A stretch of DNA of 64,000 bases from Armatimonadota bacterium. GTDB lineage: Bacteria; Sysuimicrobiota; Sysuimicrobiia; Sysuimicrobiales; Sysuimicrobiaceae. The stretch's first letter is position 1; the number at the start of each line of letters is the position of its first letter. The notes under the pieces were generated by a model. It made no database searches. It was not told the origin of the DNA and saw only the letters and a list, made by a program, of their open reading frames with translations. The stretch is taken from positions 221,549 to 285,548 of the forward strand of contig JANXCW010000001.1 of NCBI GenBank assembly GCA_025059775.1, given 5' to 3'. Positions 26,961 to 61,326 of this stretch are shown one piece after another. The translations under genes were made by a program, and so were the position numbers.

Positions 26961-27568
26961 CTCCTGGACCGCCACATCTCCTCCCGCGTCGTGAGAACCC
27001 TCCGGGCCGCGGCCGCGCTTAAGGGATCCCACTGGATGCCCACCGCGAAGGACCGAGCCCGATCGAACTGCGGCCGGCTCCACACCACCCGGCCTACGAG
27101 GGAAGCCCCCGCCCGTCCCGGAACCGTGACGAGCACCTGCTCGCCGGGTCTGGGCTCCGGCCAGGGGTTCACGAGCTCCAGGCGACACCCTCCCGCGGAG
27201 AGATCCACCAGCCACGCCTCTACGAGTCGCGTGGGGTGCTGATCCAGGCGGGCCATGTACACACGGGCGGACAGAGGCCGACGGGGCAGAGCCCGCCGAT
27301 CCACGGGGCGCAGCGGTCCCGCCAGTCGCACGCACACCGCCTCCACGGGCAGCCGCACGCACTCCGTTACGGTCCCCTCGAACTCCCAGGCCCCACCCTC
27401 CCCGTACAGCCGACCCCGCACCCGGGTTCCGGCGGGCAGCAGGAAGGGCTGTCCTCGCTCCATGGGGGCGCTGAGGAGAACCTGGCCCGCGCCCACTTCC
27501 TCCACCCGCACGGGGTAGGCTCTCCCGCCCACCCACAGCTCCACCCGCTGGTTCTCCCGCAGCTCCAT
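26957..27568 (-). CDS. YcgR/MotI-like PilZ-domain protein (PilZN + PilZ), predicted c-di-GMP-binding flagellar brake
   Basis: ORF 26957..27568. The RxxxR motif (RRALPRRPLSAR) and DxSxGG motif (DLSAGGCRL) of PilZ are both present. It occupies the flhF/flhG position between flhA and cheB. Confidence 0.75.
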   Translation of the reverse strand: MELRENQRVELWVGGRAYPVRVEEVGAGQVLLSAPMERGQPFLLPAGTRVRGRLYGEGGAWEFEGTVTECVRLPVEAVCVRLAGPLRPVDRRALPRRPLSARVYMARLDQHPTRLVEAWLVDLSAGGCRLELVNPWPEPRPGEQVLVTVPGRAGASLVGRVVWSRPQFDRARSFAVGIQWDPLSAAAARRVLTTREEMWRSRR

Positions 27569-30644: not shown

Positions 30645-30660
30645 TGCAAAGGTCGTGCCG
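30645..30660 (-). promoter_or_regulatory. sigma-54 promoter GGCAC-N5-TTGCA immediately upstream of flhB
   Basis: Minus-strand reading cGGCACgacctTTGCAtacccctttaaggtgccATG. The -12 TTGCA is the reverse complement of 30645-30649 and the -24 GGCAC is the reverse complement of 30655-30659. The ATG of flhB lies 18 nt downstream. Confidence 0.55.
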
Positions 30661-36040: not shown

Positions 36041-36056
36041 TGCAACTTCCGTGCCG
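36041..36056 (-). promoter_or_regulatory. sigma-54 promoter GGCAC-N5-TTGCA upstream of fliL
   Basis: Minus-strand reading cGGCACggaagTTGCAtagtctcgggccggagggaagggATG. The TTGCA is the reverse complement of 36041-36045 and the GGCAC is the reverse complement of 36051-36055. A GGAGGGAAGGG ribosome-binding site lies between the predicted start and the ATG. Confidence 0.6.
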
Positions 36057-36095: not shown

Positions 36096-37097
36096 TTACC
36101 GTACCCGGTAGAGGAGCCAGACACCTAGCCCGTAGGCTGCGAGCATAAGCAGGCTACCCCATTCGAGGAGAAGAAAGCGCCTCTCCGCGCGGTAGACGAC
36201 GGCGACGAGACCGAGGCTCATGAGCGTGATCCCCACAAGCCCCGAGAGAACGTGGTCGGGATCCGCAGCCGCAAAGAGGCTTGCCGGCTGAACCAGGTCC
36301 AGCGGCAGGAAGAGGGCCATGTTGAACGCGTTGGAGCCGAAGAGGTTGCCGATCGCGAGGTCGACCGCACCCATCCGAACTGCCACGATAGAGGTGACCA
36401 GCTCTGGCATCGATGTGGTCAGACCCACAAGCCATGTCCCTATGAACGTGTCCCCTAGACCGGTGATCTCGGCGATCCCATGGGCGGACCAGACGAAGAC
36501 CGGGGCCACCCCCAGCAGCCCGATCGCGGCGAGAGTCCACCCGACCACAGCACGCCGCAATACTAGCTGCGTTTCTACTTGCCAGCCGGGCGCATACAGC
36601 TCTGTCCTCGCGCTCTGGTACCTGACGTGGTGATGGATGGCCCGGGCCCCGGCCAGGTAGACAAGGAACAGCAACAGCGAAGCAAGGTCGATCCAGAAAA
36701 CCAAGAGCTCAGGGCGTGCGAGCACGAACACCGTAGCTAGTGCGGTGAGGAGTATCGCGAGACTCACCGTCAGCACGTGATCAAGGGTCGCTCGCCTCAG
36801 CACCTCTTTTCGCGGAAAGAGCAGATCGAGCACCGCGAGGATCAGCATGTTGGCCATGCTGGAACCAAAGAGGTCGCCCACGGCAAGGTCAACCGCGTCC
36901 AGCCTGACCGCAAAGATATCCGTAGTGAGTTCCGGGAGTGATGTTGCCCCAGCCAGGAGCACTGCTCCCACCCACATCCGGCCAAGCCCGGTCGTCTCTG
37001 CGATGGTCTCTGAATACCAGGCGATAGCCACTCCGGCTAGGACGATGAGGCCACCGCTGGCCACGAACGCAAGCACGGAAGTCAATGGGATCTCCAT
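36096..37097 (-). CDS. Ca2+/cation antiporter (CaCA family, YrbG-like, two alpha-repeats)
   Basis: ORF 36096..37097. Alpha-repeat motifs GATSLPELTTDIFAV and GLTTSMPELVTSIVAV. It has visibly lower GC and lower third-position G/C than the flanking flagellar genes. It sits between motB and fliL. Confidence 0.8.
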   Translation of the reverse strand: MEIPLTSVLAFVASGGLIVLAGVAIAWYSETIAETTGLGRMWVGAVLLAGATSLPELTTDIFAVRLDAVDLAVGDLFGSSMANMLILAVLDLLFPRKEVLRRATLDHVLTVSLAILLTALATVFVLARPELLVFWIDLASLLLFLVYLAGARAIHHHVRYQSARTELYAPGWQVETQLVLRRAVVGWTLAAIGLLGVAPVFVWSAHGIAEITGLGDTFIGTWLVGLTTSMPELVTSIVAVRMGAVDLAIGNLFGSNAFNMALFLPLDLVQPASLFAAADPDHVLSGLVGITLMSLGLVAVVYRAERRFLLLEWGSLLMLAAYGLGVWLLYRVR

Positions 37098-37191
37098 AAC
37101 GCTTTTGTCGCAACCCTCTGGCTCGATCCCTCCTGCATCCCCCTGCCTGTCTAAGTATATCCCGCTCGGACACGGTGCCTGCGTTCTGCGG

Positions 37192-37214
37192 GGACCTGGT
37201 CATAGACCAGGTCC
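37192..37214. promoter_or_regulatory. perfect 23-bp palindrome GGACCTGGTC-ATA-GACCAGGTCC between motB and the CaCA gene
   Basis: Read directly: a 10-bp perfect inverted repeat with a 3-nt spacer, with no flanking T-tract. Candidate operator or intrinsic hairpin. Confidence 0.4.
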
Positions 37215-42826: not shown

Positions 42827-43254
42827 GGTCTGCGCATCGAGCGCAGCAGGGCGGCTTCGTCCGCCTGTACCTGCTCGCGCCGCTCCTCCTCCCGGCGGTG
42901 CTGCAGCAGCCGCCGCTCCCGCAGCCGCTCCACCACCTGCCGCTCCGTCCTGACCTGCAAAAACCGTGCCCAAGCCGCCTCCACCTGGGTCCTCCATTCC
43001 ACCATCCTCTGCTCCGCGGTTACGGCCCCCAGCCGGGCTCGCTCGAGAACCGCGGCGGCCACGCGCAGGGCCCGGGCATCCTGGGCCTCCCGCACGCGCG
43101 CCTCCGCCTCCCGAACCTCGCTGCGGGCCCGCTCCAGCCGCACCTCTGCCTCCCGGAGGGCCCGGAGGAGGTCGCTGAGTTCCCGGCGGGCCTGCCGCTC
43201 CCGGATCATCCGCAGCCGCCGCAGGCCCTCCAGCCGGAACCGGAACCGCCGCAT
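42823..43254 (-). CDS. fliJ: flagellar export chaperone FliJ (coiled coil)
   Basis: ORF 42823..43464 trimmed to MRRFRFRLEGLRRLRMIRERQARRELSDLLRAL. Size (143 aa) and position after fliI fit FliJ. Confidence 0.65.
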   Translation of the reverse strand: MRRFRFRLEGLRRLRMIRERQARRELSDLLRALREAEVRLERARSEVREAEARVREAQDARALRVAAAVLERARLGAVTAEQRMVEWRTQVEAAWARFLQVRTERQVVERLRERRLLQHRREEERREQVQADEAALLRSMRRP

Positions 43255-48871: not shown

Positions 48872-48887
48872 TGCAAGATCGGTGCCG
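48872..48887 (-). promoter_or_regulatory. sigma-54 promoter GGCAC-N5-TTGCA upstream of flgB
   Basis: Minus-strand reading tccGGCACcgatcTTGCAaggcttcgaagGTGgctATG. The -12 element ends only 11 nt before the first start codon, which implies a leaderless or very short-leader mRNA. Confidence 0.6.
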
Positions 48888-48917: not shown

Positions 48918-48946
48918 GGAAATTGCGGCAGGGATCTTGCAATTCC
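48918..48946. promoter_or_regulatory. AT-richer inverted repeat GGAAATTGC-N12-GCAATTCC upstream of the flgB sigma-54 promoter, overlapping the first possible start of the divergent GGDEF gene
   Basis: Seen directly. The centre is about 70 nt upstream of the predicted flgB start. Candidate enhancer/regulator site or the promoter of the cyclase gene. Confidence 0.3.
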
Positions 48947-48972
48947 GCGGCCACAAAGCGCTGGAGGCGAGG

Positions 48973-50913
48973 GTGAAACGCGCAGCTTCTTCCCAGGACC
49001 GTCTACGGATCCTCCTTGCGGTGGCGGAGCACCTGAACCGGCACACGGAGCTCCAGCCCATGCTGGATTCCGTCCTTCCCTTGATCCTGGGTCTCGTGGG
49101 GGTACCCGCGGGGTGGATCTCCCTGCGAACCGAGGAGGGGTTTCAGCTCGCGGCCGCGGCAGGCCTCCCGTCTGGACTGGAGGCAGAGGACCGCGCCGCC
49201 CTGCGCTGGTCCCCTTGCGCATGTCAGCGGATGGCCCTGGAGGGGCGGCTCGTGGAGCCCGTGAATCTCCTGGAGTGCGAGCGGCTCCTGGGCCTGGCTG
49301 AGAAGGCGGAGGGGCTGCGCCTGCACGTCTCGGTCCCTCTTCGAGCCAGGGACCGCATCCTCGGCATCCTCAACCTCGCGAAGGCCGATCCAAAACCCCT
49401 CCACCAGGCGGAGCGAGACCTGCTGTGGATGATCGGGGAGCAGCTCGGGGTGGCGGTGGATCGGGCCCGGCTCCTCGCGCGGATGCAGGAGATGCGGGAG
49501 CGGGAGGAGGAGCGGATCTCCCGCTTAGCCCAGGAGCTCGTGGACGCGAACACCCTGGAAGAAGTGGCCCAGGCGGTGTTCGAGGTGTTGCGGGAGGTCC
49601 TCGCGCCCGACCGCTTGGCCCTCCTGGTGGTGGATCCCTCGCAGACCTACCTGGAGCCGGTAGCGGGGTGGGGTTGGCCGGGGGAGCGGTTGGAGTTCGT
49701 CCGGCTCCCCATGCGGCCGCCGGACGCCAACGGTCCGGCGTGGGCCTTGCACACGGGCAAACCCCTCCTCGTGGATCTGGACAGCGCCCCCTATCGGGTC
49801 CCGGAGCGGTTGCGCCAGGCCGGGGTGCAGGCCGTTCTGCTCCTCCCCATGCTCTCCGGGAAGGAGCCCATCGGGGTTCTGACGGCCCACTACTTCTCCC
49901 GCCGGGAGGTTCCGGATTCGGTTCTGCAGTTCTGCATGCTCATCGGTCGCATCGCCGCGGGGGCCGTGGCTCGCGTACGGGAGCATCTCCGCTACCGCCT
50001 GCTCTTCGAACGGGTCCCGGTGGGGCTGTACCGGTCCACGCCCGCAGGAGAGATCCTGGACGCCAACGAAGCGCTCGTGCACCTTCTCCGATACCCAGAC
50101 CGGGAGACCCTCCTGCAGACGAACGCCGTCCAGCTCTACGTGGACCCCACGGATCGAAAGCGGTGGCGGCAACTCGTGGACGAGCATGGGGTGATCTCAG
50201 GGTTCGAGACGCGGTGGCGCCGCTACGACGGGTCAGAGATCTGGATCCGGGAGAGCGCCCGCGCCATCCGCGACGCCTCCGGGACCCCGGTGTACTACGA
50301 AGGGAGCGTGGAGGACATCACGGAGCAGAAGCGCTACGAGCTGGAGGTCACCTACCTCGCGAGCCACGACCCCCTCACGGGTGCTCTCAACCGTCGGAGC
50401 TTCCAGGAGGCCCTGGAGCGCAGGATCTCCCTGGGCCGGAACACAGCTCAGAAGGTTGCCCTGCTGTTCCTGGACCTGGACGGATTCAAACACGTGAACG
50501 ACCGGCTCGGACACCAGACCGGGGATACGGTACTCCGGGTGGTGGTCCACTGCATCCGCACCCGGCTGCGGGAGGCGGATCTCCTGGGGCGGCTGGGTGG
50601 GGATGAGTTCGGGGTTCTCCTCTACCCCGCGGATGAGGCAAGGGCCTGGACCGTCGCAGAGCGGATCGTGCGGGCGGTGCGGGAGTGGGCGCAGGCGGAG
50701 CTCGATGCCCGCCTACGGATCACCTGCAGCTGCGGCATCGCCCTTTTCCCGGACCACGCCCCCACCGCGGACGGCCTCCTCACCGCCGCGGACGCCGCCA
50801 TGTACGCGGTGAAGGTCCGGGGCGGGGATGGGGTGGCGGTGTTCGCCCAGGAGAACCCGGTTTTCACCGGCCCCCTCTGGAAGGACTCTGAGCCACAAAG
50901 CCCCCCTCCCTGA
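48973..50913 (+). CDS. GAF-GAF-PAS-GGDEF diguanylate cyclase (active GGDEF motif and RxxD inhibitory site present)
   Basis: ORF 48937..50913. Preferred start is GTG 48973 behind GGAGGCGAGG (TTG 48937 is possible). Two GAF domains, a PAS domain, then LTGALNRRSF...RLGGDEFGVLL, with READ five residues upstream of GGDEF. Confidence 0.85.
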   Translation: MKRAASSQDRLRILLAVAEHLNRHTELQPMLDSVLPLILGLVGVPAGWISLRTEEGFQLAAAAGLPSGLEAEDRAALRWSPCACQRMALEGRLVEPVNLLECERLLGLAEKAEGLRLHVSVPLRARDRILGILNLAKADPKPLHQAERDLLWMIGEQLGVAVDRARLLARMQEMREREEERISRLAQELVDANTLEEVAQAVFEVLREVLAPDRLALLVVDPSQTYLEPVAGWGWPGERLEFVRLPMRPPDANGPAWALHTGKPLLVDLDSAPYRVPERLRQAGVQAVLLLPMLSGKEPIGVLTAHYFSRREVPDSVLQFCMLIGRIAAGAVARVREHLRYRLLFERVPVGLYRSTPAGEILDANEALVHLLRYPDRETLLQTNAVQLYVDPTDRKRWRQLVDEHGVISGFETRWRRYDGSEIWIRESARAIRDASGTPVYYEGSVEDITEQKRYELEVTYLASHDPLTGALNRRSFQEALERRISLGRNTAQKVALLFLDLDGFKHVNDRLGHQTGDTVLRVVVHCIRTRLREADLLGRLGGDEFGVLLYPADEARAWTVAERIVRAVREWAQAELDARLRITCSCGIALFPDHAPTADGLLTAADAAMYAVKVRGGDGVAVFAQENPVFTGPLWKDSEPQSPPP

Positions 50914-51895
50914 GCCCGCTCCCCTCGATGAACTGAGGCTCACCCCCTCGGAGAGTCGGGTCGGACTCTTTAGCGCGCGGTGGGCGCGGTCTACTTCCGG
51001 ACGAGGAAGGGGGCGTGAGGGGCAGGTGCTTCACGGCCTGCGGGAGGGGAGGAGGAGGCGGAAGGGACGTGGGGGTGGTACGGTTCAGGATTGCAGACGG
51101 CTTTGGGGTGGCATGAGGAGCCTGCGACCCCCGGAGGATGTCCGGAAGGCCCGCCATGGGTCCTCCTTCCTTCGTCTCCACCTGCGGCTCCCGTGAGGAT
51201 CGGGCCACCAGGGTGACCTTCCCGGAGTGCTGGGCCAGCACGACCCGGGGGACCGAGGAAGCCGGCACCTCCAGGGTCACCGCCACGGTGCCCGGCACAC
51301 TCGGTTCCTGTCCTGTGGACCGGTCCACCCGGATCACCCTGGCTCCCCGGACAAGAACCCGGGTGACCGGGGAGGGCCGCGTGAAGGTGCCGAGCACGTC
51401 CACCCGATCCCCCGGGAGAAGCCGGCCCATGACCGCGTCCGTGGCGGGCACCACCACGGTGACTGCCTGCATCCCCTCCTCCACGGAGCCTGCCACGTCC
51501 ACCACTCCTCCGGGTCGCTGGAGGGCGTCCGTGGTGAGGATCTCTCCGGGCGCGATGGGGCGCCTCGCTGCCATGCCCGCGACCTCCTCGAACCCCGAGA
51601 CCGCGTTCGGAGGCACCCGGTCGCGCGGCAACCGCTCCTGCCGCACGGCTTGAGGAAGGATTGCTTCACCCGGGGAGATCCCGGATGCTGCCACGAGCAC
51701 CTGAGCCTCTGTGGGCGGTTCGTGGGCCGGCGAGGCCAGCATCCACACCCCGGCTGCCGAGAGGGCCAACACGAGGCCCGAGAGGGCCATCCCTGCGGGC
51801 ACCAGCACCTTGTCCAGCAGGGGGCCGAGTCCGTCGGTCCGCCTGGGCACCGGCTTCACCTTTCCGCCTTCCCGCTTCGCCCCATCCAAACCCAT
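50864..51895 (-). CDS. CpaB/RcpC-like (SAF-domain) protein with N-terminal TM anchor; FlgA-like alternative
   Basis: ORF 50864..52324 trimmed to MGLDGAKREGG... with TM MALSGLVLALSAAGVWML. SAF domain (VLVAASGISPGEAILPQAV...VAGMAARRPIAPGEILTTDAL) followed by the RcpC-like domain (GDRVDVLGTF...VLVRGARVIRVD). The 3' end overlaps the convergent cyclase gene by about 50 nt. Confidence 0.6.
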   Translation of the reverse strand: MGLDGAKREGGKVKPVPRRTDGLGPLLDKVLVPAGMALSGLVLALSAAGVWMLASPAHEPPTEAQVLVAASGISPGEAILPQAVRQERLPRDRVPPNAVSGFEEVAGMAARRPIAPGEILTTDALQRPGGVVDVAGSVEEGMQAVTVVVPATDAVMGRLLPGDRVDVLGTFTRPSPVTRVLVRGARVIRVDRSTGQEPSVPGTVAVTLEVPASSVPRVVLAQHSGKVTLVARSSREPQVETKEGGPMAGLPDILRGSQAPHATPKPSAILNRTTPTSLPPPPPLPQAVKHLPLTPPSSSGSRPRPPRAKESDPTLRGGEPQFIEGSGLREGGFVAQSPSRGGR

Positions 51896-51897
51896 CC

Positions 51898-53364
51898 TCA
51901 CTGCCCTCCGGGTTGGGAGTCCTTCCAGGGCCGGATCTGGGCGATCACCCTCCCGTCCACGTACACGAGGATCACGCACGGCCCCGGGCAGGAGACGGGT
52001 ACCCGCACAGAGGTCGCGCCCCGGTGCTCTGCCTCGTACAGCACCCGGGAGCCTTCTCCCTCTGCCACCACCACCCGAACCCGGGCCGTCCGGCCTACCT
52101 CGAGTTCTATCTCCCCGGTTCCCGCACGGCCCCCGGGCCTCCAGGCCACCCTTTCCCCCAAGCCCTCCCCGGGCCTGCCCGCCGAATCGGAGGGGGGACG
52201 AGGTTGGCCCAGGGGGAGAGCAGGTGCCTGCTCTACGGCCCGGGCCGCGGCATCCGCGAGCCTCACTCCCGAGCCCTCCAGGGCCGCCCGGAGCTTCGAG
52301 AGGGCTTCTGACCGGCTCTGCCACCCGAACACCACCACGCCCTCATATATCCCAACACCTCCCTCCTGCCCGACCCGATACAGCTCCCCCCTGCCGTAGA
52401 CGCCCTCGAAGGCTCCAGCCCCGGCCGCGGGATCCATCTCCATCTGCAGCCGCTCTCCCTCCCCCCACACCCGCAGGAGGATCCTCCCCGCGGGCAACCG
52501 GACCTCCAGGGTCCCTTCCGGAGGGCCCTGCTTTGTCATCATCACGTACCGCTGCCGCATGGCTAACCGCCCCGACGCCTGCATTCCCAGGAGTTCCACC
52601 GTGGCCTCGTGCTCATAGATCAGGGTGGCCGGCAGCACCGGGAGCCCGATCAGCAAAATCGAGACCGCGGAGGGCGCCCAGGCCTCCGACCAGTTGGTCC
52701 CCGTATACCGGAGGCGGAGCCGTACCAACAGGCCAAGCCCTTGCCCAGGGGGCACCACGTCCTCTTGGGCCCGGGCCTCCGGTTGGGGAGAGGGTTGCAC
52801 AACCGGTGCCGCAGGCGGGGAGGCCGTGGGTTGAGGGAGCGGGACCGGCGTGGGAGTGGGGGGTGGAGGTTGCGGGCTTGGAGGAGGGGCGAGAGGCCTC
52901 TGGGCCCGCGGCCGATGGGTAGCCGCAGCGCTCGGGGTCTTCTGGGGCGGGGAGGTCCGGGGGGCAGCAGGCCGGGGCGGAGCGATCTCTACCACGTCCG
53001 CGGTGCGGCGGCGGCCCACCTTCACCCAGAACACCAGGAGTTGTCCCCCCACCCGCACATGGAGGTTCGTGGCGCCGGCCCGTCCCACCGCGTACAGGGC
53101 CACGGTTCCCTCCCGGGCCCGCACCCACGCCCGCACCACCCGCTGGTTTCCCACCGCGATGTACTCCACGGGGCGTGGGAAAAGCAAAAACAGCGTGTAG
53201 CCGGGCTGGACCGTAAGAGGGACGCGCTGGCCGGGCGAAATGGCGAGCCTGAGCCGGGCCGGAGGCTCCGGGGGCGGGGCGGCCAGCACGGGAATGGCCA
53301 GCAAGAACGCGGCAACCACGGCCGCGGCCCGGAGGCCGGTGCGCCGGTTTCTCAGCCCTCCCAT
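51898..53364 (-). CDS. secreted protein with two CpaC/secretin-N-type beta domains flanking a Pro-rich linker, but no secretin domain
   Basis: ORF 51898..53364. Signal peptide. N-terminal domain RLRLAISPGQRVPLTVQPGYTLFLLFPRPVEYIAVGNQRVVRAWVRAREGTVALYAVGRAGATNLHVRVGGQLLVFWVKV resembles the pilus-formation N-terminal region of CpaC. A similar C-terminal domain follows (GEIELEVGRTARVRVVVAEGEGSRVLYEAEHRGATSVRVPV...ILVYVDGRVIAQI). Confidence 0.5.
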   Translation of the reverse strand: MGGLRNRRTGLRAAAVVAAFLLAIPVLAAPPPEPPARLRLAISPGQRVPLTVQPGYTLFLLFPRPVEYIAVGNQRVVRAWVRAREGTVALYAVGRAGATNLHVRVGGQLLVFWVKVGRRRTADVVEIAPPRPAAPRTSPPQKTPSAAATHRPRAQRPLAPPPSPQPPPPTPTPVPLPQPTASPPAAPVVQPSPQPEARAQEDVVPPGQGLGLLVRLRLRYTGTNWSEAWAPSAVSILLIGLPVLPATLIYEHEATVELLGMQASGRLAMRQRYVMMTKQGPPEGTLEVRLPAGRILLRVWGEGERLQMEMDPAAGAGAFEGVYGRGELYRVGQEGGVGIYEGVVVFGWQSRSEALSKLRAALEGSGVRLADAAARAVEQAPALPLGQPRPPSDSAGRPGEGLGERVAWRPGGRAGTGEIELEVGRTARVRVVVAEGEGSRVLYEAEHRGATSVRVPVSCPGPCVILVYVDGRVIAQIRPWKDSQPGGQ

Positions 53365-53374
53365 GGCGGTCCCC

Positions 53375-54385
53375 TCACGGGGTGGTGTACGTCACCTGCA
53401 GGGAGGGGGCGAAGAACTGCTCAAGGTCGTCAGCACCGCCGGGGGTCGGGATCACCGCGAAACGGAAACGAATCCCGATGTGGCTCCGGGAGAGCTGAGC
53501 CCGCACGAGGCTCGTGGCGTCGAAGGAGAAGGAAACCGGTGCAAGCGCCTGCACTCCCCCGAAGACCGCGATCGCGGAGGCAAGGGGAGAAGCGAGGTAG
53601 TCGTCCGGAGCCAGGATCCCGGGGGAGGAATCATCGAGCCAGGCCACCCCATCGGCCCAGAGGTTGTTTCCGGCACCCCATGGATTGCCAGTGACCGTCT
53701 GCCGCTGGCCGGTATAGACCGCGCTCACCACGTTCGCCCCGGGAACCTGGAGCTCCGGAGGGACCCGGAAGGCAACAAAGGCCGCGGCAAGGGCGTTCGC
53801 CCCCCCGCACGGGTTCTGCCCCGCAGCGTCAAAATCCTCTCCCGCCATCATCACAGGGGAGACCGCTCCGTTGCTGCACACTGTTCCCGCCACCACGGGC
53901 CCAAGCACCACGGTGACAGGGGCAGAGGGAGCCCGGGTGGTGAACCGCCACGTGTACGGCTGCAGCAGGACCCGGCCGTCTACGGCTTCCACCCCCGGCT
54001 CCACGGTCACCGTGTAGGAGGTGCTGTTCGCGAGCCGCAGCCCACTCAGCCGCACGCCCTGCCCGCCGGAGGTGAGGGTGCAGGAAGTTGGGCCCGCGAG
54101 GGGAGGGGGGTCGATGCTGATGGACAGGCACGCGGTGGTGCGTCGGATGATGTCGCTGAAGAGCACCACGATCTCCGTGAGCGGAGAAACTCCCGTCTCC
54201 CCGTCCCGAGGTACCGTGGAAACCACCTGAAGGAAGGGTGGGGGAGCCGGGGTGATGGGAGAGGCGGTGGGGGTTGGGGTGGGTGCGGGGGGCGGATTCG
54301 TCGCCGCCAGAAGCGGCAGGAGCCCACACCCAGACGTCAGGAGAACCGCAAGCAGGGCCAGGGAAAGCCTTCCGGTGCGGTGCAC
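53375..54385 (-). CDS. lipoprotein with Ig-like (SbsA/Big-type) domain
   Basis: ORF 53375..54535 trimmed to the GTG behind AAGGGGGCGAG. Lipobox LLTSGC. A Pro/Thr-rich linker, then Ig-like beta domains. Confidence 0.55.
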   Translation of the reverse strand: MHRTGRLSLALLAVLLTSGCGLLPLLAATNPPPAPTPTPTASPITPAPPPFLQVVSTVPRDGETGVSPLTEIVVLFSDIIRRTTACLSISIDPPPLAGPTSCTLTSGGQGVRLSGLRLANSTSYTVTVEPGVEAVDGRVLLQPYTWRFTTRAPSAPVTVVLGPVVAGTVCSNGAVSPVMMAGEDFDAAGQNPCGGANALAAAFVAFRVPPELQVPGANVVSAVYTGQRQTVTGNPWGAGNNLWADGVAWLDDSSPGILAPDDYLASPLASAIAVFGGVQALAPVSFSFDATSLVRAQLSRSHIGIRFRFAVIPTPGGADDLEQFFAPSLQVTYTTP

Positions 54386-54422
54386 CTCGCCCCCTTGAAC
54401 CTTTTTACGGTTATCGTCCGAA

Positions 54423-54451
54423 ATCTTACGAGTGACCCCGGCGTGCGTCAA
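54423..54451 (-). promoter_or_regulatory. putative sigmaA promoter TTGACG-N17-TAAGAT for the lipoprotein gene
   Basis: Minus strand cgcTTGACGcacgccggggtcactcgTAAGATttcgg. The -35 overlaps the rpoN stop codon. Confidence 0.35.
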
Positions 54452-55839
54452 GCGGACCGCATCCGACGCCGCACCCGTGCGGAGGGGATCCCCGCCAGTT
54501 CCCGGTACTTGGTCACCGTCCGCCGCGCCAGGCAATACCCTTCCGCCCGCAGCCGCGCCACCAGATCCTCGTCCGTGAGGGGCCGGTCCAGGGGCTCTGC
54601 GGCCACCAGTTCCCGGATCCGCTCCCGCACGGGGAGGCTTGCGTCGAAGAACACCTCGAAGGAGACCACGCGACCATCGGGCATCTGCACGAACTTGCCC
54701 GTAACCGCCCGGCTCACCGTGGATTCACAAACTCCCAGTTCCCGAGCCACCTGCGTGAGGGTGAGGGGGCGGAGGTACCGGGGGCCGTGGTCGAGGAATG
54801 CCCGCTGGTAGCGGGCGAGGAACTCCGCACACCGGTAGAGCATGGTGTTGCGCCGGCGCACCGCCTCGATAAAGAGCCGGCCCCGGCGCAGGTGAGCCCG
54901 CAGCCGATCCCGCTCTTCAGGCGTGAGGTTCGCGGCCAGGAGCGCCCGCCGCACGAGGGGGTTAATGCGGAGGGTGAGGGCACCGCTGGCCACGAGTTCC
55001 ACCCGGTAGCCCTCCTCCGTGCGGGTGATCACCACGTCCGGAACCGCCAGTTCCTCAGGCCGTACCTCGCGCCCCTCATGCTCCGCGTGGAAGGCCTCCG
55101 CGGGCGCGGGAACCGTGTGGGTCCGCAGGTAGCGAAGGATCTCGTGCACGGTCTCCGGCCGCACCCCCAATCGCGCGGCCACCGCCTCGTGCCGCCCCCG
55201 GGCCAGATCCTCCAGGTGGTGAGCCACCAGGGCCTCGGCCAGCCCGCGGAGCGGGTGGTCCGGAAGCCGCTCCAGTTGCAGCAGCAGGCACTCCCGCAGG
55301 TCCCGGGCCCCGACGCCCGCGGGCTCCAGGGCCTGCACGGCCCGCAGGGCCTGCTCCGCGAGCGCCTCGGGGATCCCGAGCTCCGCGGCCACGTACCGGA
55401 GCTCCCCGTCGAGGTAGCCCCGGGGATCCAGGTAGCCCAGCAGGTGCAGGGCCACCCGTTGGATCTTCGGGTCCCGCACGCTCACCCGCAGCTGTGCCTC
55501 CAGGTGGTCCAGGAGGTTCGTGGGCGCCCGGGCAAACTCCAGGGGGGATGGACGTTCCTCCCGGGCGCCCGGATCCCTCCGCTCCCACCCGAACCGGGCC
55601 GAGCCGCCCAGGAGGCTGTAGCCGCACCGGCCGCACGAGATGCCCTCCGCTTCCATGCCACACTGGGGGCAGATCCACGGCACCCGCTCCAGCACCGGGT
55701 TCTCCGAGAGCTCCTGCTCCACCCGACTCACCAGCTCCTGAAGGGAGAGGGGCAGGATGGCGTTCGCCGCGAGCACCACTTGCAGGGCTCGGGCCTCAGG
55801 CTGAACCACCGCTACGGGTGCGAGCTCCAGGCTGACCAT
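54448..55839 (-). CDS. rpoN: RNA polymerase sigma-54 factor RpoN
   Basis: ORF 54448..55839. Region I (Q/L-rich). Core-binding region. HTH and RpoN box ARRTVTKYRE near the C-terminus. Confidence 0.9.
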   Translation of the reverse strand: MVSLELAPVAVVQPEARALQVVLAANAILPLSLQELVSRVEQELSENPVLERVPWICPQCGMEAEGISCGRCGYSLLGGSARFGWERRDPGAREERPSPLEFARAPTNLLDHLEAQLRVSVRDPKIQRVALHLLGYLDPRGYLDGELRYVAAELGIPEALAEQALRAVQALEPAGVGARDLRECLLLQLERLPDHPLRGLAEALVAHHLEDLARGRHEAVAARLGVRPETVHEILRYLRTHTVPAPAEAFHAEHEGREVRPEELAVPDVVITRTEEGYRVELVASGALTLRINPLVRRALLAANLTPEERDRLRAHLRRGRLFIEAVRRRNTMLYRCAEFLARYQRAFLDHGPRYLRPLTLTQVARELGVCESTVSRAVTGKFVQMPDGRVVSFEVFFDASLPVRERIRELVAAEPLDRPLTDEDLVARLRAEGYCLARRTVTKYRELAGIPSARVRRRMRSA

Positions 55840-55850
55840 ACCTTCCTCCG

Positions 55851-56213
55851 CTACCGAAGGGCCCTCCGGATGGCCTCCACCAGGCGTGCCTGATCGAAGG
55901 GCTTTACTACGAAGTCCCGGGCACCCGCCTGGATGGCCTCCACCACCAGGGCCTGCTGTCCCATGGCGCTCACCATGACGATGCGGGCCGCGGGATCCCG
56001 GCGCAGGATCTCCCGCACCGCCCGCACTCCATCCATCTCCGGCATGGTGATGTCCATGGTGACCACGTCGGGTTTGGTCTCCTCGTACCGCTCGATGGCT
56101 TCCAAGCCGTTGCTGGCCTCCCCCACCACCTGGAAACCACTGTTGGTGAGGACCTCGCGGAGCATGGCCCGCATGAAGGCCGCGTCGTCCACTACCAGGA
56201 CCCTAGCCGACAT
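55851..56213 (-). CDS. cheY: chemotaxis response regulator CheY
   Basis: ORF 55851..56213, 120 aa. Canonical receiver (VLVVDDAAFMR, MDITMPEMDG, MVSAMGQ, FVVKPF). Confidence 0.9.
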   Translation of the reverse strand: MSARVLVVDDAAFMRAMLREVLTNSGFQVVGEASNGLEAIERYEETKPDVVTMDITMPEMDGVRAVREILRRDPAARIVMVSAMGQQALVVEAIQAGARDFVVKPFDQARLVEAIRRALR

Positions 56214-58131
56214 GCGCCAGTTCCTCCTCTCGTACCGCGAGGCGCACCAACCGCGCGGGGTCCAGGATGAGGGCCACCCGCCCGTCCCCTAGGATGGTGG
56301 CCCCCAGCACCCCGGGCACCTCGCCGAGGTAGTTCCCCAAGGGTTTCACCACGACCTCCCCCTCGCCCACCACCCCGTCCACCCACAGCCCCACCCGCCG
56401 CCGGCCGAAGCTCACCACCACGCACAGGAGCCGGTCTGGGTCCGGAGGTACGGGAAGATCCAGGATCTCGTGCACGGACACCAGGGGGAGCACCGAACCC
56501 CGCAGCACCGTGGTGCGGCACGCACCCACCCGGTGTACCCGGGAGGCCGGGATCTCCACGATCTCGTGCACCGACGAGATGGGGACCACATAGCGCTCCC
56601 CCCCGCAGGTCACCGTCACAGCCCGCACGATGGCCAGGGTGAGGGGAAGCCGCAGGAGGAATCGGGTGCCCCGGCTCCGCTCCGTCTCCACCTCCAGGCT
56701 TCCGCCCACCGCCTGCACGCCAGCCCGCACCGCATCCATGCCCACGCCCCGGCCGGAGACGTCCGTGACCACCGCGGCGGTGCTGAGCCCCGGGTGGAAG
56801 ATGAGTTCCACCGCCTCCCGCTCCGTCAGGCGCGCGGCGGCCTCTGGGCTGAGGATGCGCAGCTCCACGGCCCGGCGGCGCACCCGATCCGTGTCGATCC
56901 CCCGACCATCGTCCTCCACCACCACCACGATCCCGTCCTCCTGGTAGGCCGCCAGGCGCAGCCGGCCCGTCCGCGGCTTTCCGAGCCGCTCCCGCTCCTC
57001 CGGGGACTCGATGCCGTGGTCCACCGCGTTGCGCACGAGGTGCATGAGCGGGCCGCCGATCTGCTCCAGGATGGACCGGTCCAGCTCTACGTCCTGCCCC
57101 TCCAGCACCACCTCCACCTCCTTGCCGGACCGTCGTGCCAGGTCCCGCACGTACCGGGGGAAGCGGCTGAAGAGGTGCTCCATGGGCAGCATGCGGGTCT
57201 TGAGCACCTGGGCCTGCAGGTCCGTGGCCACGCGGCCCAGGTGAGCCGTGGCGTCCAGGATCTCCTCTAGGAGGCCGTGGGCCCTCTCGCCCGCGCGCAG
57301 TCGGTGGGCGATCTGCTGGAACCGGATGCGATCCACCACCAGTTCCCCCACCAGGTTCATGATCCGGTCCAACCGCTCCACATCCACCCGCACGGTGCGC
57401 AGGGCGGCCCGCCGGCTCACCTCCGGATCCTGCAGGAGCTTGCCCCGAGCCTGCGGGCCCAGATCCAGCCACCGTTCGTCCCGCGGGGCCTCCGAAGCGG
57501 GCAGGACCCGTACGGATTCCACGTCTGCGCCCGAGAGGAGCTCCAGGAGGACCTCTGGCTCCCGCACCCGGGCCCGGCAGCTCAGCTCCAGATCCAAGGC
57601 CCCCCCACGGATCTCCTCCTCGGAGGGCACCACCTGTTCGACCTCGCCTTCCCGGCGAAGTATCTGCAGCAGGGCGAGTGCCCGGGCTGCCCGCATGGGG
57701 CAGTCCTCCCGCAGCCGGATCCGCACCTCCACGGGGTGGAGCGTCTCCGCGGAGGCTCCCTCCTGCCAGGCCTCCAACTGCCGCACCAGCTCCCCCACCT
57801 CCGTGCGCTCCTCGCCTGTCTCCGCCACCTCCTGCCGCAGGGATCGGAGCGCATCCACGCACGCGAGCAGGAGGTCCGCCAAGCCCTCCGCGCTCCGGCG
57901 TCCCCCTCGCAGCGCGTCCAGCACCTCCTCCATGCGGTGCGTGAGTTCCGCCATGCGTCGGAACCCGAGCGCCGCCGCACTTCCCTTGAGGGTGTGGGCG
58001 CTGCGAAAGAGGCTCTGCACGAGCCCTGCATCCGCGCCCTCGCGCTCCAGCTGCAGCACCCCCTCCTCCAGGATCTGCAGGTGCTCCTCTGCCTCCGCGA
58101 GGAAGGTGGGGAGGAGCTTAGCGAGGTGCAC
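56203..58131 (-). CDS. cheA: chemotaxis histidine kinase CheA
   Basis: ORF 56203..58131. The HPt domain carries the SAHTLKGSAAALG motif. Dimerisation and HATPase_c domains (HLVRNAVDHGIE, DDGRGID, GRGVGMD) and a C-terminal CheW-like domain follow. Confidence 0.9.
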   Translation of the reverse strand: MHLAKLLPTFLAEAEEHLQILEEGVLQLEREGADAGLVQSLFRSAHTLKGSAAALGFRRMAELTHRMEEVLDALRGGRRSAEGLADLLLACVDALRSLRQEVAETGEERTEVGELVRQLEAWQEGASAETLHPVEVRIRLREDCPMRAARALALLQILRREGEVEQVVPSEEEIRGGALDLELSCRARVREPEVLLELLSGADVESVRVLPASEAPRDERWLDLGPQARGKLLQDPEVSRRAALRTVRVDVERLDRIMNLVGELVVDRIRFQQIAHRLRAGERAHGLLEEILDATAHLGRVATDLQAQVLKTRMLPMEHLFSRFPRYVRDLARRSGKEVEVVLEGQDVELDRSILEQIGGPLMHLVRNAVDHGIESPEERERLGKPRTGRLRLAAYQEDGIVVVVEDDGRGIDTDRVRRRAVELRILSPEAAARLTEREAVELIFHPGLSTAAVVTDVSGRGVGMDAVRAGVQAVGGSLEVETERSRGTRFLLRLPLTLAIVRAVTVTCGGERYVVPISSVHEIVEIPASRVHRVGACRTTVLRGSVLPLVSVHEILDLPVPPDPDRLLCVVVSFGRRRVGLWVDGVVGEGEVVVKPLGNYLGEVPGVLGATILGDGRVALILDPARLVRLAVREEELAHVG

Positions 58132-58635: not shown

Positions 58636-60063
58636 TCACCTCCCTGACTCCAGCTCCACGCGGACCTCGCCGCTTTGGAGGGCCTCCACGAAGACATCCA
58701 CCACCTCCGGATCGAACTGCCGTTCCCGCTGGGCCCGCAGCTCCTCCATCGCGGCCTCCACGGGAACCGGGGGGCGGTAGATGCGGCCCGCGGTCATCAC
58801 CTCGAAGGCGTCCACCACGGCCAGGATGCGGGCCCCCACCGGGATCTCCTTTCCCGCAAGCCCCATGGGGTATCCGCGGCCGTCCCACCGTTCGTGGTGG
58901 TGCAGGACCCAGCGCACCACGTCCTCCCCGAATCCCGCCGCGGAGAGGATCTCCGCGCCCATCACCGTGTGCCGCTTGACGACCTCGTACTCCTCCGGGG
59001 TGAGGGGTCCGGGCTTGAGCAGGATGGCGTCGCGGATGCCGATCTTGCCCACATCGTGCAGCATCCCCGCCACCCGCAACTCCTGCAGGCTGAGCTCCGA
59101 AAACCCCAACCGCCGGCCCACGGCCACCGCGTAGCACGCGAGCCGTTCACTGTGCCCCCGCAGGGTGGCCTCATGGAGCTCACAGGCATAGGCCAGGGCG
59201 TTCACGAGGCTCTGGTTCGCCTGCTGGACCCGGCGCACGAGATCCACCTGGAGGAGCGGAAGAGCCCCCAGCACACCCAGCAGGTTCAACAGCTCCCGGT
59301 GCACGGGGCCGAAGGGTTCGCGGGACCGGGTTCGGAAGACGGTGAGGGCTCCCAGGGTACGGCCCGCGGTGGCCAGCGTCGCGGTAAGCACCTCCCCCGA
59401 GTCCTCTGCGGGTAGGCGCGCATGGGTCAGGCGGTCGGGCAGGAGCGTCCACAGGTGTTCCGCCAGCGAGCCGCCCGCCTGCTGCACCGTGGCCACCACC
59501 AGGTCCTGGGCCTGCGGGTTCAGGGTCACCACCGCGGCCCGATCCGCGCCCAGGCTGTGCCGGGCGATCTCCACCAGCCGCCGCAGCACCTCCTCCGGGC
59601 TGCCGTCTGCGGGCACCAGCTCCCGCAACCGCTGGAGCGGCCGCAGCACCGCAAGCTGCAGCTCTTCCCGGAAGATCCGGTGAGCGCGCACCGCGGAGTG
59701 TACCTCCTCCGCGAGAGCCTCGCCCGTAACAGGCGGTGCCAGCAGGGCCCGCGCGCCCTGTCGCACCGCCTCTGGCATCCGCGCGGGCGGGGCCACGGCC
59801 ACCACGGGGAGGTGCGGGTACGTCCGGGCGAGCACGGCCACGGCCTCCAGGCCCTCCTCGCCCATGGCCGCCACGTCCACCGCGAGGGCGTCTGCCTCCC
59901 CGCTCAGAAGCGCGGCCCGCGCCGCGTCCAGGGTGGGGACCCAGCGGAAGGCCACCGCGTTTCCGCCCCCCTCCAGGGGATCCGGCCTCAGCACCACGCA
60001 CCGCAGCGGCTCCACGCGGCTGCCTCCTACCCGTGGGATTGCAACTCCCGTGCCGTGCACCAC
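58636..60063 (-). CDS. HD-GYP c-di-GMP phosphodiesterase with N-terminal degenerate receiver and GAF domains
   Basis: ORF 58636..60063. HD-GYP motifs MLHDVGKIGI and HHERWDGRGYP. The N-terminal REC-like domain keeps the Asp (ALAVDV) but lacks the conserved Thr and Lys (VVAVAPP, ALLAPPV). Confidence 0.8.
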   Translation of the reverse strand: MVHGTGVAIPRVGGSRVEPLRCVVLRPDPLEGGGNAVAFRWVPTLDAARAALLSGEADALAVDVAAMGEEGLEAVAVLARTYPHLPVVAVAPPARMPEAVRQGARALLAPPVTGEALAEEVHSAVRAHRIFREELQLAVLRPLQRLRELVPADGSPEEVLRRLVEIARHSLGADRAAVVTLNPQAQDLVVATVQQAGGSLAEHLWTLLPDRLTHARLPAEDSGEVLTATLATAGRTLGALTVFRTRSREPFGPVHRELLNLLGVLGALPLLQVDLVRRVQQANQSLVNALAYACELHEATLRGHSERLACYAVAVGRRLGFSELSLQELRVAGMLHDVGKIGIRDAILLKPGPLTPEEYEVVKRHTVMGAEILSAAGFGEDVVRWVLHHHERWDGRGYPMGLAGKEIPVGARILAVVDAFEVMTAGRIYRPPVPVEAAMEELRAQRERQFDPEVVDVFVEALQSGEVRVELESGR

Positions 60064-61242: not shown

Positions 61243-61326
61243 CGCGCCCGATCCGTTCCGGTTGCGAGGATCCCAAGGGGACTCGCGTCCGAACATTATG
61301 CAAAAACCGTGCCGCAAGTCCGGACG

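Follow-up and report, generated by a model that had tools for sequence, protein, structure and literature searches.

A gene trio behind rpoN in Candidatus Sysuimicrobium that probably encodes a detached envelope module of the Tad type

What machine is served by three exported proteins whose genes stand directly behind the gene for sigma-54 and close to a flagellar cluster? The question is raised by a 64-kb window (the whole stretch of DNA analysed, 64,000 nucleotides) from Candidatus Sysuimicrobium, an uncultivated hot-spring member of the phylum Sysuimicrobiota (alias CSP1-3). The minus strand of this window carries a string of genes in the order HD-GYP, cheW, cheA, cheY, rpoN, A, B and C, of which the last three are tightly packed. 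The rpoN gene (54448-55839, minus strand) scores 287.7 bits against TIGR02395 (cut-off 277.35) and contains the Sigma54_CBD and Sigma54_DBD domains; we treat it as the upstream neighbour, that is, as context and not as a component. Gene A follows after 62 bp. The flagellar gene flgB lies approximately 2 kb from the trio, with a convergent GGDEF gene in between. A preliminary description of this DNA had offered two readings of the trio, namely that it builds an accessory structure of the flagellum or that it was left behind by a Tad system, and overall our analysis supports these in part. Because the genes of its relatives are found within or next to clusters for Tad (type IVc) pili, the trio most likely represents part of a pilus envelope scaffold that has become detached, rather than a new flagellar structure.

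The claim that three exported proteins follow rpoN on the same strand is borne out by the coordinates of the open reading frames and by signal peptides, a lipobox and a transmembrane anchor. Gene A (53375-54385, minus strand, GTG start) encodes a 336-aa lipoprotein in which a signal peptide with lipobox is followed by a linker rich in Pro and Thr, an Ig-like domain of the Big_5 family and ~185 aa of C-terminal sequence that has no family assignment. The signal peptide ends in LLTSG|C, in agreement with the lipobox rule, and Pfam places Big_5 at residues 103-200 of the long ORF (E 3.3e-13); together these confirm the lipoprotein with an Ig-like domain that had been proposed.

Gene C (50864-51895, minus strand) encodes a 343-aa protein of the CpaB/RcpC type, with a transmembrane helix at residues ~30-54, SAF and RcpC beta-clip domains at ~65-232 (51200-51703) and a Pro-rich tail of ~110 aa. 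It passes the curated equivalog model for CpaB, TIGR03177, with 127.9 bits against a cut-off of 71, matches PF16976 RcpC at 61 bits and PF08666 SAF at 38 bits, and is annotated as CpaB by NCBI. Generic CpaB proteins match it at 27-35% identity, while the CpaB proteins of three complete Tad loci (L013, L014 and L016) are its reciprocal best matches at 39-44%; beyond the genus, its nearest relatives are CpaB genes in complete Tad loci. Like the CpaB/RcpC proteins of the Tad alignment subcomplex in Caulobacter and Pseudomonas, it combines a membrane anchor with SAF and RcpC beta-clip domains. It differs from them in its surroundings, following rpoN and two unusual exported proteins instead of standing beside cpaC, tadZ or tadA, and in carrying the Pro-rich C-terminal tail as an extra.

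Gene B (51898-53364, minus strand), whose ATG start lies 10 bp past the stop codon of A and which is separated from C by 2 bp, encodes a secreted 488-aa protein with a signal peptide. It is a fusion of two modules, a pil_N domain (residues 37-128) and a module of an unnamed family (residues 206-488). The two are joined by a Pro-rich linker (residues 129-205; 52750-52980, minus strand) that is predicted to be disordered (pLDDT <50), varies in length and sequence among orthologues, and has the highest dN of any segment of B except the signal peptide. In the AlphaFold2 (AF2) model, the mean pLDDT is 68, with values of 75-93 in the domains. The protein had been described as secreted, with two beta domains resembling the N-terminal region of CpaC and no secretin domain. 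The first and last of these points stand, as Pfam finds no match to PF00263, but only one domain of B is CpaC-like. A database of 5.8 billion proteins contains only 5 clusters of homologues, and 39 matches were obtained when 1.84 billion representatives were searched with an HMM.

The first domain of B (52981-53256, minus strand) is a beta-sandwich of the pil_N superfamily, which includes the N-terminus of CpaC/RcpA, CpaI and the N-terminal domain of VirB9. Domains of the pil_N type occur at the N-terminus of CpaC secretins and also in VirB9. Against PF13629 (T2SS-T3SS_pil_N), B itself scores 19.2 bits, under the cut-off of 23. Since 14 of 19 family members match this model (best E 1e-8), and hhalign places residues 39-118 on the pil_N domain of CpaC secretins with 88% probability (E 3e-6), we regard the likeness as real despite the score. 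Among the families for which HMM searches had been suggested, SAF, RcpC and Big_5 were matched, pil_N was found below threshold, and Secretin was not found. In the Tad locus L016, this domain also has a match in a pil_N protein encoded separately. Relatives occur in addition in a T4SS-like locus with VirB4 and TrbC and beside a type IVa pilus cluster, so the domain alone is not specific to Tad systems.

The C-terminal module of B (residues 206-488; 51901-52749, minus strand) is modelled as a beta-barrel of 8 strands, a helical hairpin and an Ig-like domain. No Pfam family matches it, and it shows no similarity to secretins. Over its full length it does align with secreted proteins of 311-319 aa that are encoded on their own; their genes directly precede flp/tadE in four Tad loci (L013, L014, L016 and L022), and such proteins also occur in L012. 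In the four loci, the stand-alone gene is followed by flp/tadE-cpaB-cpaC-tadZ-tadA-tadBC. Judged by these alignments, the module belongs to an unnamed, Tad-locus-associated family. Inside the barrel lies a hydrophobic segment, SAVSILLIGLPVLPATLIY (residues 232-250; 52615-52671, minus strand), with a Kyte-Doolittle(19) value of 1.96, compared to 2.04 in the homologue from the related contig L004 and less than 1.5 in the stand-alone members of the family. This segment may be a membrane-inserting hairpin; the AF2 model has pLDDT <50 at residues 225-245.

Contig L004 gives the only other context in which homologues of gene A are known. There, homologues of A and B (41% and 43% identity) stand together, directly upstream of a true CpaC gene with both pil_N and Secretin domains, and the A homologue is a Big_5 lipoprotein (lipobox LAG|C) that aligns with A over its full length. 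Furthermore, a sigma-54 activator gene and an HD-domain gene that flank the Tad locus L014 share 61% and 46% identity with their counterparts upstream of the trio, a resemblance that suggests a shared ancestral neighbourhood. The Tad reading of the preliminary description is supported by the reciprocal best matches of C to CpaB, by the B module in four Tad loci and by the A-B pair ahead of the L004 CpaC gene. We consider it probable that the three genes encode an envelope-spanning module, now detached, of a machine of the Tad (type IVc pilus) type.

A secretin-less pil_N protein that works with CpaB is already known. CpaI of Caulobacter crescentus is a stand-alone protein of the periplasm that lacks a secretin domain and folds like the N-terminus of RcpA; it is modelled as a bridge from CpaB to CpaC, with CpaB docking on its beta-sandwich, and deletion of cpaI reportedly leaves secretins without an alignment complex (PMC13170226). 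In architecture, the first domain of B would resemble CpaI, being likewise a secretin-less beta-sandwich of the pil_N type encoded beside CpaB, and the two may share the logic of a separate connector from the alignment protein to the outer layer. Unlike CpaI, B is much larger, and its Pro-rich spacer fuses the connector to a module of ~280 residues from another family. B shares with the CpaC/RcpA secretins a homologous N-terminal pil_N domain, and in L004 a true CpaC follows the A and B homologues; it differs from them in lacking the secretin domain and in its C-terminal module. Our verdict is that the trio is a lineage-specific variant of a known Tad envelope module.

How such a module might be built can be sketched from these likenesses. 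C would act as the CpaB/RcpC alignment protein, anchored in the cytoplasmic membrane by its single transmembrane helix, with its SAF and RcpC domains projecting into the periplasm, where proteins of this type form a cage or ring. B would be a CpaI-like connector, with the beta-sandwich that CpaC/RcpA and Caulobacter CpaI position in the periplasm, below the secretin, linked by ~75 Pro-rich residues to the Tad-locus accessory module, which with its hydrophobic hairpin probably lies at, or is inserted into, a membrane or the outer layer. A would be the Big_5 lipoprotein partner of B, the pair being kept in two different gene contexts. Its role may be analogous, and not homologous, to that of the lipoproteins that accompany Tad secretins, CpaD and TadD; CpaD is a lipoprotein partner of the Tad secretin (PMC13170226). 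We infer that A, B and C form a physical complex that would link an inner-membrane platform to the outer envelope, with the motor, the pilins and any secretin encoded elsewhere, and that the machine they serve is still a Tad pilus.

An alternative is that the rest of the Tad machine was lost, or was never present, and that the trio now serves in the periplasm as a scaffold that surrounds the flagellar motor or the chemotaxis and motility apparatus. The absence of machine genes nearby is consistent with this. Pfam on the scanned parts of the window and tblastn found no tad ATPase (tadA/cpaF), platform (tadB/C), flp, tadE, prepilin peptidase or secretin gene in the 64 kb, which upholds the earlier statement that tad ATPase and pilin genes are missing from the vicinity; when 46 proteins of Tad-type loci were searched against the whole window by tblastn, they matched only A, B, C, FliG, the EBP and the HD-GYP gene. 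When the secretin of L004 was used as query in a word-indexed search, no match named from these MAGs was returned, a weak result, as most matches are nameless. With neither machine genes in 64 kb nor a MAG-named secretin match, the trio may lack a pilus to serve. There is also precedent, in that a cage of PilM/N/O in the Helicobacter pylori flagellar motor is described (PMC10823254) as pilus alignment proteins kept and reused by the flagellum. By analogy this could support a flagellar scenario for the trio, although the protein families differ, being type IVa PilMNO there and CpaB here.

Co-option would also fit the arrangement of the genes. The trio ends the gene string that begins with HD-GYP, and this string is preceded by a sigma-54-type motif, GGCACG-N4-TTGCA (60040-60054, minus strand), which is a possible upstream promoter with read-through into the trio. 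This motif has 5 exact matches in the window (0.03 expected), all on the gene strand, and its positions are kept in sister loci. The synteny of the trio, which lies ~2 kb from flgB, is the same in every fetched locus of the three orthologue clusters, a co-occurrence of the kind that had been proposed for checking. However, the adjacency to flagellar genes is seen in only one genus-level clade, whose members share 72-80% protein identity, and for this reason it counts for little; in L004, the more distantly related A-B pair adjoins a secretin gene and not flagellar genes. Our motif scan found no sigma-54 motif immediately ahead of the trio, in contrast to the flagellar operons. The trio has instead the promoter of its own that had been noted, the sigma-70-like TTGACG-N17-TAAGAT (54423-54451, minus strand), located in the gap between rpoN and A with its -35 element overlapping the rpoN stop codon. 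This is the sole site of its kind in 50500-56500 (0.2 expected), and three sister-species loci (L001, L003 and L006) keep both hexamers and the 17-nt spacing as TTGAC(T/G)-N17-TATGAT. The convergent GGDEF gene further separates the trio from flgB, and C fails the FlgA model (see below). The flagellar idea thus has positional support only, within a single genus-level clade, and we consider co-option by the flagellum unlikely, even with the purifying selection described next, which would fit it.

If "remnant" is taken to mean a decaying, functionless leftover of a lost Tad locus, we find it improbable. In the tblastn search of the window, no other tad genes accompany the trio, and its dN/dS (0.24-0.27 for A, 0.27-0.34 for B and 0.33-0.34 for C) is somewhat above the 0.02-0.22 of its neighbours cheY, fliF and rpoN, as decay would predict. 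These values are nevertheless well under 1, and the folded domains of B have the lowest (0.22-0.23). Purifying selection acts on all three genes, their reading frames are intact in at least 4 species, with the signal peptide, lipobox and transmembrane anchor kept, and the promoter hexamers are conserved.

It is very unlikely that C is a FlgA-type chaperone of the P-ring and that A and B are further ring-assembly factors. Like FlgA, C contains a SAF domain and is encoded near flagellar genes; its SAF region matches PF13144 ChapFlgA (27.5 bits, cut-off 23.8), and its best sequence match in the PDB is FlgA 3frn, at a weak E of 0.72. The ChapFlgA match is confined to positions 2-63 of 122, the half of the profile that corresponds to the shared SAF domain, and C stays below the cut-off of TIGR03170 flgA_cterm (44 bits against 54.65), whereas it clears that of CpaB. 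The preliminary description had called C a membrane-anchored SAF/RcpC protein, CpaB- or FlgA-like; the anchor, both domains and the CpaB identity hold, while the FlgA identity is not supported. Pfam did not find flgH or flgI in the scanned parts of the window.

We give equally little credence to a conjugation-like type IV secretion complex with B as a VirB9-like ring protein: no VirB4-, VirB6-, VirB10- or relaxase-type family was matched by Pfam among the scanned window genes, B has no CagX/VirB9 match in Pfam, its partner gene encodes CpaB, typical of Tad loci, and the nearest homologues of C and of the larger module of B are in Tad loci. In favour of this proposal, one member of the family of the first domain of B matches CagX in Pfam, and another (P0136) has TrbC, a VirB4-like ATPase and a Spore_III_AA-like ATPase encoded in its locus. 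Foldseek searches of the B model against the PDB matched VirB9, DotH, TrwF, CagX and TraK (E 7e-7 to 1e-4), and these ring proteins, with Bacteroides TraN, are the best structural matches of the model; the matches presumably belong to domain 1, the output being silent on which domain of B aligned. By our reading of the sequences, stand-alone relatives of that domain carry a second domain that appears to resemble that of a TraN-like match (P0141).

The three genes that directly follow rpoN (54448-55839, minus strand) are best explained, with moderate confidence, as a detached envelope-spanning module of a Tad (type IVc pilus) type machine. All three lie on the minus strand: gene A (53375-54385), the first after rpoN, encodes a Big_5 lipoprotein; gene B (51898-53364), whose start lies 10 bp beyond A, a 488-aa secreted protein; and gene C (50864-51895), whose start lies 2 bp beyond B, a membrane-anchored CpaB protein. 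The preliminary description had reported three exported proteins after rpoN on one strand at these positions, and we confirm them with one correction, which concerns the domains of B. A gene for a GAF-GAF-PAS-GGDEF diguanylate cyclase (48937-50913, plus strand) converges on C with a 50-bp overlap and separates the trio from flgB, with which the flagellar cluster opens; this convergent arrangement is kept in sister species.

The window, which belongs to an uncultivated bacterium, has a G+C content of about 70%. A metagenome-assembled genome (MAG) labelled 'Armatimonadetes bacterium' encodes a protein with 100% identity to B, and in a profile search of genome contigs the only species-representative genome with a B orthologue was Candidatus Sysuimicrobium calidum. 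Candidatus Sysuimicrobium belongs to the phylum Sysuimicrobiota, formerly CSP1-3 (PMC11604079). The main text of the published description of Sysuimicrobiota makes no statement about the envelope. In the portion of its supplement available to us, the flagellar table covers core genes only, and there is no entry for flgH, flgI, flgA, cpaC, cpaF, tadA, a pilus, a secretin or LPS.

Five exact copies of GGCACG-N4-TTGCA, a motif of sigma-54 type, are present in the window where 0.03 would be expected, all of them on the gene strand (30645-30659, 36041-36055, 42956-42970, 60040-60054 and 61299-61313, all minus). These sites stand ahead of flhB, fliL, an SLT gene, the HD-GYP/che/rpoN string and a sigma-54 activator gene; a copy with one mismatch (48872-48887) stands ahead of flgB, and the motif positions are conserved in the sister loci. 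The flagellar and chemotaxis regulon of the window looks sigma-54 dependent. Because several of the sites fall within the longest ORFs, the true start codons probably lie further downstream. A search directly upstream of A found no sigma-54 promoter there. The promoter reported earlier for A, TTGACG-N17-TAAGAT (54423-54451), stands up well: it is the sole sigma-70-like site in 6 kb, and its hexamers and spacing are kept in three sister-species loci. Two routes into the trio are available, transcription reading through from the che/rpoN string and the trio's own sigma-70-like promoter. The flagellar cluster ends with a PilZ/YcgR-type gene (26957-27568), and the che string starts with an HD-GYP gene (58636-60063); because these and the GGDEF gene are present there, cyclic-di-GMP control of the region seems likely. 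RpoN itself carries, at about residues 57-74, between the activator-interacting and core-binding regions, a CxxC...CxxC stretch (CPQCGMEAEGISCGRCGY) with weak matches to zinc-ribbon-type NCBIfam models, which would be an unusual insertion for region II of RpoN.

The rest of the window, where scanned, consists of flagellar genes in a Firmicute-style cluster (from flgB to flhA, followed by the PilZ/YcgR gene and cheR) together with chemotaxis, metabolism and transport genes; neither flgH nor flgI turned up among the window genes scanned. In this cluster motB and fliL flank a gene of the Na+/Ca2+ exchanger family (36096-37199, minus strand; Na_Ca_ex, E 9e-38). When 46 proteins from Tad-type loci were compared with the window by tblastn, they matched only A, B, C, FliG, the activator and the HD-GYP gene, which bears out the earlier statement that no tad ATPase or pilin genes lie near the trio.

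That the flagellum has co-opted the trio is a reading we regard as unlikely: Helicobacter offers a genuine precedent (PMC10823254), and the one basis for it here is adjacency. We also consider it improbable that Sysuimicrobium is devoid of any tad motor, pilin and secretin genes, with the trio a Tad-derived scaffold rewired into a sigma-54 motility/chemotaxis string. The trio would then either serve the flagellar motor from the periplasm, much as the PilMNO cage does in Helicobacter, or form a conduit that needs no secretin, in which a ring of B subunits would touch a membrane through a conserved hydrophobic hairpin (residues 232-250). The finding would be notable only if the genome were without the rest of the Tad machine; the trio, a conserved alignment module left as an orphan among motility genes, would then be a second, independent instance of pilus parts reused by another apparatus. 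A word-indexed search with the secretin of contig L004, which carries relatives of A and B, returned no match named as coming from the trio-bearing MAGs, a weak result because most of the matches are nameless.

None of the orthologous loci has a disrupted ORF for A, B or C. Pairwise comparison of the window with two sister species gave dN/dS values of 0.24-0.27 for A, 0.27-0.34 for B and 0.33-0.34 for C, against 0.18-0.22 for rpoN, 0.12-0.16 for fliF and 0.02 for cheY; along B, constraint was strongest in the folded domains (0.22-0.23). The dN/dS values and the intact ORFs therefore indicate that selection maintains the trio, though its grip is looser than on the core motility genes. The suggestion that it is a decaying remnant is contradicted by this selection and by the conserved promoter, and we consider it very improbable.

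C had been described as a membrane-anchored SAF/RcpC protein, CpaB-like or FlgA-like, and of these two assignments the first holds. C reaches 127.9 bits with the curated CpaB model TIGR03177 (cut-off 71), in an alignment over profile positions 13-227 of 262, a hydrophobic peak at residues 30-48 (Kyte-Doolittle (KD) value 2.03) supplies an N-terminal transmembrane anchor, and the Pfam domains SAF (38.2 bits) and RcpC (61.1 bits) each exceed their cut-offs; the model score and the combination of anchor, SAF and RcpC are those of the CpaB/RcpC family. That C is instead a FlgA-type chaperone is scarcely credible, since the flgA_cterm model TIGR03170 reaches only 44 bits, under its cut-off of 54.65, and the match to PF13144 is confined to the SAF half. 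No secretin, TadZ or TadA gene stands beside C anywhere in the 64-kb window, whereas its closest homologues, on the contigs L013, L014, L016 and L022 fetched for relatives of the trio proteins, do adjoin secretin and TadZ/TadA genes. C is 39-43% identical to the CpaB proteins of L013, L014 and L016, which in turn find their best matches, by a wide margin, in the C proteins of Sysuimicrobium. A search of the PDB by sequence with C was uninformative (best E 0.72).

A is a bacterial lipoprotein with a Big_5 domain. Its signal peptide has a hydrophobic segment (KD 2.23) followed by LLTSG|C, with the lipobox cysteine, and Pfam Big_5 (PF13205) matches at 50.7 bits against a cut-off of 23.6 (E 3e-13). 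Neither an AlphaFold2 model made without an alignment (mean pLDDT 35.7, unusable) nor a sequence search of the PDB (best E 0.19) was informative.

B has a cleavable signal peptide and, as first described, no secretin domain: PF00263 gives no match at E up to 1. We modelled it with AlphaFold2 using five homologues (mean pLDDT 68, folded parts 75-93). The model comprises a beta-sandwich (residues 37-128), a disordered proline-rich spacer (129-205), an eight-stranded beta-barrel (206-346) and an Ig-like domain (405-477), and also contains a helical hairpin. Among 1.84 billion representative proteins, an HMM search picked out only 39 relatives of B, in two groups, one of about 320 aa that has only the N-terminal domain in common with B, and one of about 311-319 aa that shares only residues 206-488. 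Because the two groups are separate, B is a fusion of two families, which we call the N-family and the C-family. For B alone the match to T2SS-T3SS_pil_N (PF13629) stays under the cut-off (19.2 bits versus 23); homology is supported at the level of the family, since 14 of the 19 N-family members match this model, with a best E of 1e-8, and hhalign places residues 39-118 of B on the pil_N domain of CpaC secretins with 88% probability (E 3e-6). The C-family, in contrast, matches no Pfam model, and hhalign gives its module in B a probability of 0.7% against CpaC secretins. The correction is thus that, of the two CpaC-N-like beta domains first described, one resembles the CpaC N-terminus and the second does not. 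A sequence search of the PDB with the N-family profile was uninformative (best E 0.35).

We considered whether the long-stranded middle domain of B could be a divergent secretin and rejected this, as it has no homology to secretins; as an outer-membrane barrel it was rejected too, the weaker Foldseek matches of B being small soluble eight-stranded barrels (among them DUF3224, dirigent and pyocyanin demethylase). Within this predicted soluble barrel, residues 232-250 (52615-52671, minus strand) form a transmembrane-like hydrophobic segment (KD 1.96), where AlphaFold2 confidence is low; it is kept in the L004 homologue, is weaker in stand-alone family members, and may insert into a membrane.

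Compared with the PDB by Foldseek, the B model matches best to ring proteins of the VirB9 family from type IV secretion systems, namely DotH, VirB9, TrwF, CagX and TraK (E 7e-7 to 1e-4). In spite of this structural similarity, B differs from VirB9/CagX in having no Pfam CagX match (one of its 19 relatives has one) and in the lack of type IV secretion genes among the window genes scanned. A role in type IV secretion would suit the fold of domain 1 and fits poorly with the CpaB partner and the C-terminal module of B, and we give it hardly any credence.

Orthologues of B with 72-76% identity occur in three further clusters, and every locus fetched from these has the order EBP (the sigma-54 activator gene), HD-GYP, cheW, cheA, cheY, rpoN, A, B, C, convergent GGDEF, flgB, flgC, fliE, fliF. 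The trio co-occurs in all the orthologous loci fetched; these are limited to one genus-level clade, and the synteny therefore says little about function. Profile searches of genome contigs and of metagenome contigs with B yielded one orthologous locus each and no new contexts.

The contexts that are informative belong to more distant relatives. In L004, a protein 43% identical to B (P0005) follows a Big_5 lipoprotein with the lipobox LAG|C, which shares 41% identity with the whole length of A, and directly precedes a genuine CpaC gene, with pil_N and secretin domains, and a DUF192 gene. We rejected L004 as a second locus of the window's own genome, since its tetranucleotide correlation is 0.947 where size-matched pieces of the same or a congeneric genome give 0.973-0.990. 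In the complete Tad loci of L013, L014, L016 and L022, stand-alone C-family members come just before flp, tadE (three copies), cpaB, cpaC, tadZ, tadA, tadB and tadC; the same module is found in L012 too, and stand-alone N-family members occur in the extended Tad loci of L012 and L016. In addition, the Tad locus of L014 neighbours a sigma-54 activator and an HD-domain gene 61% and 46% identical, respectively, to the pair upstream of the trio, which points to a shared ancestral neighbourhood.

In Caulobacter, CpaB is an alignment protein anchored in the inner membrane, CpaI, encoded on its own and periplasmic, folds like the N-terminal domain of RcpA and is modelled as a bridge between CpaB and the secretin, and CpaD is a lipoprotein partner of the secretin (PMC13170226). 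B, with its signal peptide, pil_N homology, lack of a secretin domain and cpaB-type gene 2 bp downstream, may be likened to CpaI in architecture; unlike a CpaC/RcpA secretin, it has no C-terminal secretin domain. What the searches show is the homology of the individual parts; that the proteins form a complex, how it is arranged and which machine it now serves are inferred. By analogy with Caulobacter, C would form an alignment cage on which the pil_N domain of B would dock, the proline-rich spacer of B would cross the wall, and the C-terminal module of B would lie in the outer layer with lipoprotein A.

There is precedent for a pil_N protein that lacks a secretin domain and works with CpaB. 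The novelty lies in the particular fusion in B, in two accessory families without a name, in a Big_5 lipoprotein dedicated to the module, and in the module's detachment, in an uncultivated phylum, from any tad locus. If a detached Tad module is the true explanation, the trio would be a lineage-specific build of the connector from the inner membrane to the outer parts of the Tad pilus machine, in which a CpaI-like pil_N domain is fused to an unnamed Tad-locus accessory family and paired with a dedicated lipoprotein, in a phylum, Sysuimicrobiota (CSP1-3), that has neither a cultured member nor a described envelope. It would add one more example to recent work in which Tad systems join their outer and inner complexes in differing ways. 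The two small uncharacterised protein families identified here could be named and modelled.

The N-family domain is common to several envelope-spanning machines. One member adjoins a type IVa pilus cluster with PilC, PilB, PilM/N and PilQ (L019, 9956-20921), and a more distant one occurs with TrbC, a VirB4-like ATPase and a Spore_III_AA-like ATPase in a locus resembling a type IV secretion system (L021, 5426-12256). The extended Tad locus of related lineages (L014, 1-21602; L016, 1-21608; also L012 and L022) has as extra genes a KaiC-like AAA_25 protein, a pil_N/VirB9-like protein of 318 aa, a Spore_III_AA-like ATPase, a second T2SSE ATPase, Lnt and an HDOD/HD_5 protein. Inside the L014 Tad locus there are also a sigma-54 activator and a full-length paralogue of FliG with 57% identity to the window's own FliG; L016 has neither.
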